DNA of 403 nt from a phage. The stretch lies in the sequence record BH153126.1; one strand, 5' to 3'. Made by a program: the position numbers and the translations under genes. Positions 1 to 403 of the stretch are shown here, piece after piece. The notes under the pieces were generated by a model that was not told the origin of the DNA, did not search any database, and saw only the letters and a program-made list of their open reading frames with translations. The first letter of the stretch is position 1, and every line of letters starts with the position of its first letter.

Positions 1-72
1 ATCGAATCCCAGCGTGTCGAAATCGCATCCAGTATCATGATGCAAGGTGAAGAAGAAAAAAGACCGCGATGA
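1..72 (+). CDS. 3' end of an upstream protein-coding gene (5' end outside the window), read exactly as written in frame 1; product unidentified
   Basis: Frame 1 is open from base 1 to TGA 70-72, with a second in-frame TGA at 73-75, giving IESQRVEIASSIMMQGEEEKRPR*. Codons 1-60 are typical preferred enterobacterial codons (atc, gaa, tcc, cag, cgt, gtc, gca, ggt). The last three sense codons include two rare Arg codons (AGA, CGA), which suggests the true frame is lost near 58-63. Frames 2 and 3 are closed at 38-40 and 48-50. Confidence 0.4.
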   Translation: MESQRVEIASSIMMQGEEEKRPR

Positions 73-139
73 TGAAGATATGGAAGATGAGGACGAAGAT
101 CGCAAAGACGATAAAAAAGACAAAGAAGACGACGAATAA
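1..139 (+). pseudogene. Alternative reading of the same gene: frame 1 (1-60) joined to frame 2 (62-139) by a one-base register change in the A6 run; C-terminal K/D/E-rich charged tail; frameshifted gene, sequencing error, or recoding
   Basis: Frame 2 (41-136) reads CKVKKKKDRDDEDMEDEDEDRKDDKKDKEDDE, followed by tandem stops TAA TAG (137-142). In this tract the T residues sit at codon position 2 or 3 in frame 2, mostly as the wobble base of GAT, which is a coding-frame signature. Frame 2 is closed upstream by TGA 38-40 and has no plausible start with an RBS, so it is best explained as the displaced 3' end of the frame 1 gene. One extra A in the run at 56-61 would give ...IMMQGEEEKKDRDDEDMEDEDEDRKDDKKDKEDDE**. 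Confidence 0.35.
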
Positions 140-140
140 T

Positions 141-146
141 AGGAAG
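141..146 (+). promoter_or_regulatory. Shine-Dalgarno / ribosome-binding site for the ATG at 152
   Basis: AGGAAG at 141-146, overlapping the second stop codon (TAG 140-142) of the upstream tail. The AGGA core ends 7 nt before ATG 152-154, within the usual spacing range. Confidence 0.5.
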
Positions 147-151
147 CCAAC

Positions 152-235
152 ATGATTAAAGATTTTACTCCTAAAGCTGACTTAGAAACTTTTCTGCCGG
201 AAGCACAGGAAATTGGACATGTTGGCTATGTTTGA
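152..235 (+). CDS. Small ORF as written (27 codons), probably the 5' portion of a longer frame-disrupted gene; product unidentified
   Basis: ATG 152 with a well-spaced SD; frame 2 reads MIKDFTPKADLETFLPEAQEIGHVGYV then TGA 233-235. The start lies 9 nt after the upstream tandem stops, an operon-like arrangement. At 84 nt it is too short to be confident as a stand-alone gene. Confidence 0.35.
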   Translation: MIKDFTPKADLETFLPEAQEIGHVGYV

Positions 236-395
236 GTCAGAAGAACTATTGAAAATCGTTGAAGGTATCTCCGAGGATGAGCCGAACTGGCGGTAGCAAT
301 GCTGTCTATCATCGACGGAATTATCGTAAATGAAGCAATGGTTAACATGTAACGCACGCGGGGAAGTTGCACGTAAGAAGATCGCAAACCCGTGA
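152..395 (+). pseudogene. Candidate small acidic protein gene (about 80 codons if restored) disrupted by about three frame changes; could equally be assembly indels
   Basis: Four consecutive open segments with protein-like composition and preferred codons: frame 2 at 152-232 (MIKDFTPKADLETFLPEAQEIGHVGYV); frame 3 at 234-293 (ESEELLKIVEGISEDEPNWR, stop TAG 294-296); frame 2 at 281-349 (AELAVAMLSIIDGIIVNEAMVNM, stop TAA 350-352); frame 3 at 354-392 (ARGEVARKKIANP, stop TGA 393-395). Each segment begins where the previous one ends. The individual segments are only 13-27 codons, so none is statistically compelling alone. Confidence 0.28.
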
Positions 396-403
396 GCGCA
401 TGC

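Follow-up and report, generated by a model that had tools for sequence, protein, structure and literature searches.

Pairs of GATC sites that are regulated through Dam are known from the operators of pap and agn43 and from the SeqA sites at oriC, and in all of these the sites lie in non-coding regulatory DNA and their GATC positions are conserved. The genes that matter here are best described in phage T4, where gp67 and gp68 belong to the scaffolding core of the prohead, at roughly 340 and 240 copies, and are cut to peptides by the gp21 protease during maturation (PMC9958956, PMC9026906). Our subject is an exact direct repeat with a GATC in each copy, found in a 403-nt stretch of phage DNA (BH153126.1; the whole stretch is called the window below). 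The original prediction, made from the letters of the window alone, had offered a small duplication, a shared binding motif or coincidence as its explanation. Our conclusion, which we hold with a probability of about 0.93, is that the repeat is a chance coincidence of coding composition in two adjacent, non-homologous late genes and not a functional element.

The window matches 110 phage records, the best of them being Escherichia phage RB49 (Krischvirus, Straboviridae, T4-like) with 97% identity over the full length. Its counterpart in RB49, NC_005066.1 91128-91533, takes in the last part of gene 67 and the greater part of gene 68 (Table 1), and once the indels and swaps private to the window are set aside the two are the same over the full length. 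A megablast search of complete E. coli genomes gave no match to the window, which is thus neither prophage nor host sequence. The plasmid search returned only a weak low-complexity match, to an ATPase gene of Bacillus, that has no bearing here, and the sole Rfam match at E ≤ 1 was a meaningless snoRNA at 13.9 bits, where the gathering score is 60. Scans of the window for intrinsic terminators and promoters found none, the promoter scan covering the sigma-70 type and not T4 late promoters; the T4 late promoter sequence TATAAATA was not seen when the window was inspected by eye.

Table 1. Coordinates of the features of the window, numbered from its first letter.
Feature	Position	Strand	Basis or remark
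Gene 67, 3' end (prohead core protein gp67)	1..139	+	RB49 match, translation, Pfam, PHROG
Gene 67 stop codon TAA	137-139	+	
Copy 1 of the repeat	95..106	+	Gene 67 frame, GAA GAT CGC AAA = E-D-R-K
Spacer between genes 67 and 68	140..151	+	Second in-frame stop TAG at 140-142; Shine-Dalgarno-like AGGAAG at 141-146
Gene 68, first two-thirds or so (prohead core / head scaffolding protein gp68)	152..403	+	RB49 match, PHROG
Copy 2 of the repeat	377..388	+	Conserved basic segment of gp68, ARGEVARKKDRKTRERNA

RB49 carries genes 20 (portal), 67, 68, 21 (protease), 22 and 23 in the same order as T4, and the order around gene 67 is likewise kept in 10 other Krischvirus and two Tequatrovirus records. The RB49 gp67 protein has 76 aa and an acidic C-terminal tail, ...DEDEDRKDDKKDKEDDE (also given as ...EEEKDRDDEDMEDEDEDRKDDKKDKEDDE). 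It is a member of the Pfam family GP67 (PF17634), scoring 47.8 bits where the curated cut-off is 27, and matches PHROG 1064 with an E-value of 4.5e-23. The 135-aa gp68 belongs to PHROG 1049 (head scaffolding, E = 2.3e-57) and is 56-57% identical to the gp68 of Tequatrovirus; no Pfam family was found for it. In phage Ec_Makalu_002 an RBS is annotated at the site equivalent to the spacer between the two genes.

As had been predicted, the 12-mer GAAGATCGCAAA is present in exactly two copies on the + strand of the window, at 95-106 and 377-388, both of them beginning at positions 2 mod 3. A separate repeat search returned this pair as well. No further copy was found in the window on either strand at up to two mismatches, and the match cannot be extended, since C and A precede the copies and G and C follow them. 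The predicted identity of 12 nt holds only in the window, however, and the references share 11 nt. In all 11 Krischvirus records copy 2 reads AAGAAAGATCGCAAAACC (AAG AAA GAT CGC AAA ACC CGT, encoding K-K-D-R-K-T-R), and in the window an A is missing there on either side of GATCGC. The genuine shared word is the 11-nt AAGATCGCAAA, which is repeated in RB49 and in eight of the ten other complete Krischvirus genomes, and the 12th matching base is due to a private deletion, the window having lost an A from the AAA run ahead of copy 2. The predicted separation of 282 bp is likewise that of the window, where six bases between the copies are missing; in the references it is 288 bp. The claim that the copies are in the same phase fits the references, in which genes 67 and 68 share a reading frame and divide the word as (GA)A GAT CGC AAA in the one and (AA)A GAT CGC AAA in the other, or E/K-D-R-K. 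It does not fit the window itself, where the frame of gene 68 is broken and the ORF over copy 2 (330-395) runs in a different frame from GAT CGC AAA.

The quality of the window becomes apparent when it is aligned with RB49 and the ten other complete Krischvirus genomes. Its private differences are exclusively eight homopolymer-length indels (a gain of A near 56 and losses of AA near 209, of G near 283 and of a single A near 343, 350, 377, 385 and 399) and two swaps of adjacent bases (GC for CG at 42-43 and TC for CT at 324-325). None of these changes is found in any of the 11 Krischvirus genomes, and there are no ordinary substitutions between the window and RB49. The extra A, which falls in an A-run, breaks the frame of gene 67, and that of gene 68 is broken at every one of the deletions, by two bases in the case of the one near 209. 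The net effect is that gp67 is cut off before its acidic tail and gene 68 is interrupted several times, so that the list of ORFs in the window holds only fragments of 21-53 aa. An exact search with copy 2 and its flanks as they stand in the window found nothing in IMG/VR or in metagenome contigs; with the reference version there was one match, in IMG/VR. Given that the private differences consist only of homopolymer indels and swaps, and that they break both reading frames, we infer that they are sequencing or assembly errors of the homopolymer-miscall type rather than real mutations. If so, the true copy 2 would read AAAGATCGCAAAA and the spacing would be 288 bp. As a whole the window resembles a low-accuracy single read or an unpolished contig of RB49 itself.

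The part of gene 67 that holds copy 1 is variable among isolates. The tract changes length by indels of GAx codons, and the gp67 tails of Krischvirus isolates therefore differ. This acidic tail (about 71-106 in the window, around 370-410 in our sequences L002-L011) is a hot spot of such in-frame indels; the annotated length of gene 67 ranges from 219 to 243 nt including the stop codon among Krischvirus isolates, and W115 has lost the segment that encodes DRK. The window also has a second, imperfect direct repeat, of 23 nt with 74% identity and a spacing of 57, at 56-78 and 113-135, whose codons are GA-rich ones for Asp, Glu and Lys. The exact 9-mer at its core, AAAAAAGAC (at 56 and 113), would not be there without the additional A at 56.

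How surprising the main repeat is depends on what it is compared with. In 5000 dinucleotide shuffles of the window an exact direct repeat of 12 nt or more turned up somewhere with P = 0.012, and one of 11 nt or more with P = 0.043. The predicted rarity of the 12-mer is thus borne out for one window, but such a repeat is routine across hundreds of windows, and several are still expected when a 164-kb genome is cut into windows of 403 bp. The caution that the purine-rich composition raises the odds was right. When codons were shuffled within each gene and gene 67 was compared with gene 68, the two had a word of 11 nt or more in common in 18% of 2000 trials and one of 12 nt or more in 6.7%. Asp, Glu, Lys and Arg make up 93% of the last 30 residues of gp67, Lys and Arg make up 41% of residues 70-135 of gp68, and the two proteins have six tripeptides in common, including DRK and KDR. 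In the head-gene block of RB49, GAT is used for 67% of Asp, CGC for 36% of Arg, AAA for 81% of Lys and GAA for 84% of Glu.

The same question can be asked of the whole RB49 genome. It contains 78 direct pairs of 11 nt or more that lie within 400 bp, where block shuffles that preserve composition give 19.7 ± 4, but the pair in genes 67 and 68 has the minimum length among these local pairs, and the excess consists of much longer repeats in early-gene regions. Counting the word throughout the genome, which had been proposed as a check, revealed no genome-wide motif in RB49: GAAGATCGCAAA occurs once, and AAGATCGCAAA occurs three times on the + strand and not at all on the - strand. The three occurrences compare with about 0.09 expected per strand under a first-order model, which counts against coincidence, although the comparison is post hoc. 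In RB49 728 distinct 11-mers occur at least three times, and the word has neither the genome-wide over-representation nor the positional bias of a functional repeat there. Its third copy is at 100718-100728 of RB49 (818-828 of our sequence L016), on the + strand and antisense within the minus-strand gene inh. The product of inh is a minor head protein and protease inhibitor, and this context is unrelated to that of the copies in genes 67 and 68.

The excess of local repeats in RB49 is concentrated in the early-gene regions (for example 114739-115028, 117099-117348, 118248-118646, 121441-121674, 131658-132001 and 158912-159249), with TTTGATTCTCC(T), GTCAACAAC(T)TTTT and TTTCGTTTCGGTATGGGTG as recurring words. 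Mobile regulatory cassettes have reportedly been described for RB49 and phi1, and the words of the early regions are probably these cassettes.

The acidic tail of gp67 and the basic segment of gp68 each hold Asp-Arg-Lys after a codon ending in AA (GAA or AAA), and codons that are common in the head-gene block and used by both genes then produce the genuine 11-nt identity. The loss of a single A before copy 2 in the window stretches the match to 12 nt. On this reading the repeat itself carries no mechanism, and each copy acts through its codons alone.

A shared binding motif would mean that the copies are paired protein-binding sites or Dam-methylation-sensitive sites (GATC operators), acting on the DNA of the head cluster or on late mRNA. 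The GATC in each copy, the Dam methyltransferase that RB49 encodes (RB49p063) and the high count of AAGATCGCAAA relative to the first-order model are in its favor, as is the identity of 17 nt around copy 2, AAAGATCGCAAAACCCG, between RB49 and two Tequatrovirus genomes, synonymous sites included. Despite this we consider it extremely unlikely. Both copies lie within ORFs and are in frame as D-R-K, and copy 1 is dispensable: its 12-mer is found in nine of 11 Krischvirus records, but W115 has it deleted and Brandy has GATCAC there, with His in place of Arg. DRK is also absent from the gp67 of Tequatrovirus (T4-type). Copy 2 sits in ARGE-x-x-R-x-KDRKTRERNA, the peptide of gp68 that is best conserved, and we read this segment in 22 T4-like loci of IMG/VR that were recovered by gp68 alignment. 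K-D-R-K is encoded in 20 of them, and across the 22 the codons vary between GAT and GAC, between CGC, CGT and CGA, and between ACC, ACG, ACT and ACA, with GATC missing from the site in 14. This free synonymous variation in other T4-like lineages led us to reject the 17-nt identity as a sign of nucleotide-level selection. Judging from the codons in these alignments, the constraint at copy 2 acts on the protein and not on the DNA word, and the two copies show no nucleotide-level conservation beyond what the proteins need. The GATC sites themselves look ordinary. The window has only two, at 98-101 and 380-383, one in each copy as had been predicted, and each is the junction of the Asp codon GAT and the Arg codon CGC. 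Their number is as composition predicts (2.45 ± 1.37 in dinucleotide shuffles, with at least two in 148 of 200 shuffles), and their density is average, 4.96/kb against 5.76/kb (945 sites) in the RB49 genome. As RB49 has Dam, both sites are probably methylated, as would be the other 943, and nothing singles them out. The third copy has an unrelated context, the sigma-70-type scan found no promoter-like site near the copies, and the comparative data have already largely refuted a binding or Dam site. A variant in which AAGATCGCAAA, found in both head-core genes in most Krischvirus genomes and in gene 68 in some Tequatrovirus ones, is a nucleotide-level signal that was secondarily lost in some lineages is barely credible to us. 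Such a signal, tolerated as coding sequence, could be a site that responds to Dam or binds a protein and so coordinates the expression of late head genes, or it could be a hotspot of recombination.

We consider it very unlikely that the repeat is the remnant of a small duplication or of gene conversion between genes 67 and 68, or a microhomology through which the two recombine. The word is exact and has the same orientation and phase in two adjacent genes, 288 bp apart, as this would lead one to expect, but the identity stops sharply at its edges (GAC-G/AAGATCGCAAA/G-AC against AAG-A/AAGATCGCAAA/A-CC). The flanks thus differ at once, and the two proteins have no detectable homology (BLASTP E = 4.7), which is not the picture of a segmental duplication. 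T4-type phages have copy 2 without copy 1, from which it follows that copy 1 arose within the fast-evolving tract of GAx codons. A 288-bp deletion joining the copies is seen in no relative among the aligned Krischvirus genomes, and the codon-shuffle null already stands at P = 0.18 for a word of this length. The opposite concern is that the repeat is wholly an artefact of the errors of the window, with none in the real genome. Two private single-A deletions do flank copy 2, and one of them makes the 12th matching base. However, the 11-nt repeat is real in the references, so that the errors lengthen the coincidence and do not create it, and an artefact of this kind is exceedingly improbable. Coincidence is then the sole survivor of the three explanations originally put forward, and chance similarity of coding composition is the reading we retain.

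Two further observations concern methylation in RB49. GATC is over-represented in its genome, with 945 sites where base composition predicts 592 and a first-order model 668. RB49p143 and RB49p189 are also annotated as DNA methyltransferases, and the note on RB49p143 points to an rRNA methyltransferase.

The start of gene 68 drew our attention for another reason. A perfect 10-nt inverted repeat, AGCCAACATG at 145-154 and CATGTTGGCT at 218-227 of the window (1644-1653 and 1719-1728 of our RB49 sequence L001), has its first arm across the gene 68 start codon, adjoining its Shine-Dalgarno, and its second arm in codons 23-26. A 111-nt RNA of RB49 (L001:1630-1740) folds at -30 kcal/mol with this helix closing a hairpin (z = -4.24), and none of 200 shuffles was as good. 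The arms are invariant in 11 Krischvirus phage records and in three IMG/VR loci, one of which is the same contig fetched again, and the stop codon of gene 67 lies 12 nt upstream of the start of gene 68. The predicted fold may be a candidate for a hairpin that sequesters the start and couples the translation of gp68 to that of gp67. In most other T4-like lineages gene 67 overlaps or abuts the start of gene 68, and most T4-like loci have no significant structure at that start (z between -2 and +0.5). Two T4-like IMG/VR loci of different sequence (L027 and L028) also draw the start codon into a long-range helix (z = -2.5 and -4.2), the folded stretch running from about 25 nt upstream of the gene 68 start to 90 nt downstream of it. 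An inner CCCUG...CAGGG pairing, in the codons for -PE- and -AQG-, is common to many T4-type loci.

The result is chiefly a negative one, and the repeat can be struck from the candidates. It is also an example of two traps that await scanning by sequence alone. Charged low-complexity coding regions yield exact short repeats at appreciable rates, and where a read is of low accuracy, homopolymer errors can make such matches longer while masking the reading frames that would explain them. Were the repeat functional after all, which the comparative data argue against strongly, it would be a new cis-element inside T4-type head genes.

Looking at the known systems side by side helps to place this locus. 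With T4 gp67 and gp68 and with genes 67 and 68 of RB49 the window shares gene order and protein families, but unlike RB49 and its relatives it carries homopolymer indels and swaps that break both ORFs. The likeness to Dam-regulated site pairs is limited to the GATC in each copy and to a Dam that is encoded by the phage; unlike the sites in pap, agn43 and oriC, the GATCs of the window are codon junctions inside ORFs and are lost in relatives. The repeat can also be set beside the chance repeats of charged low-complexity tracts of GAx and AAx codons, with which the tail of gp67 and the basic part of gp68 share their charged composition, and nothing sets the pair in genes 67 and 68 apart from the 20 or so pairs that chance gives per genome.
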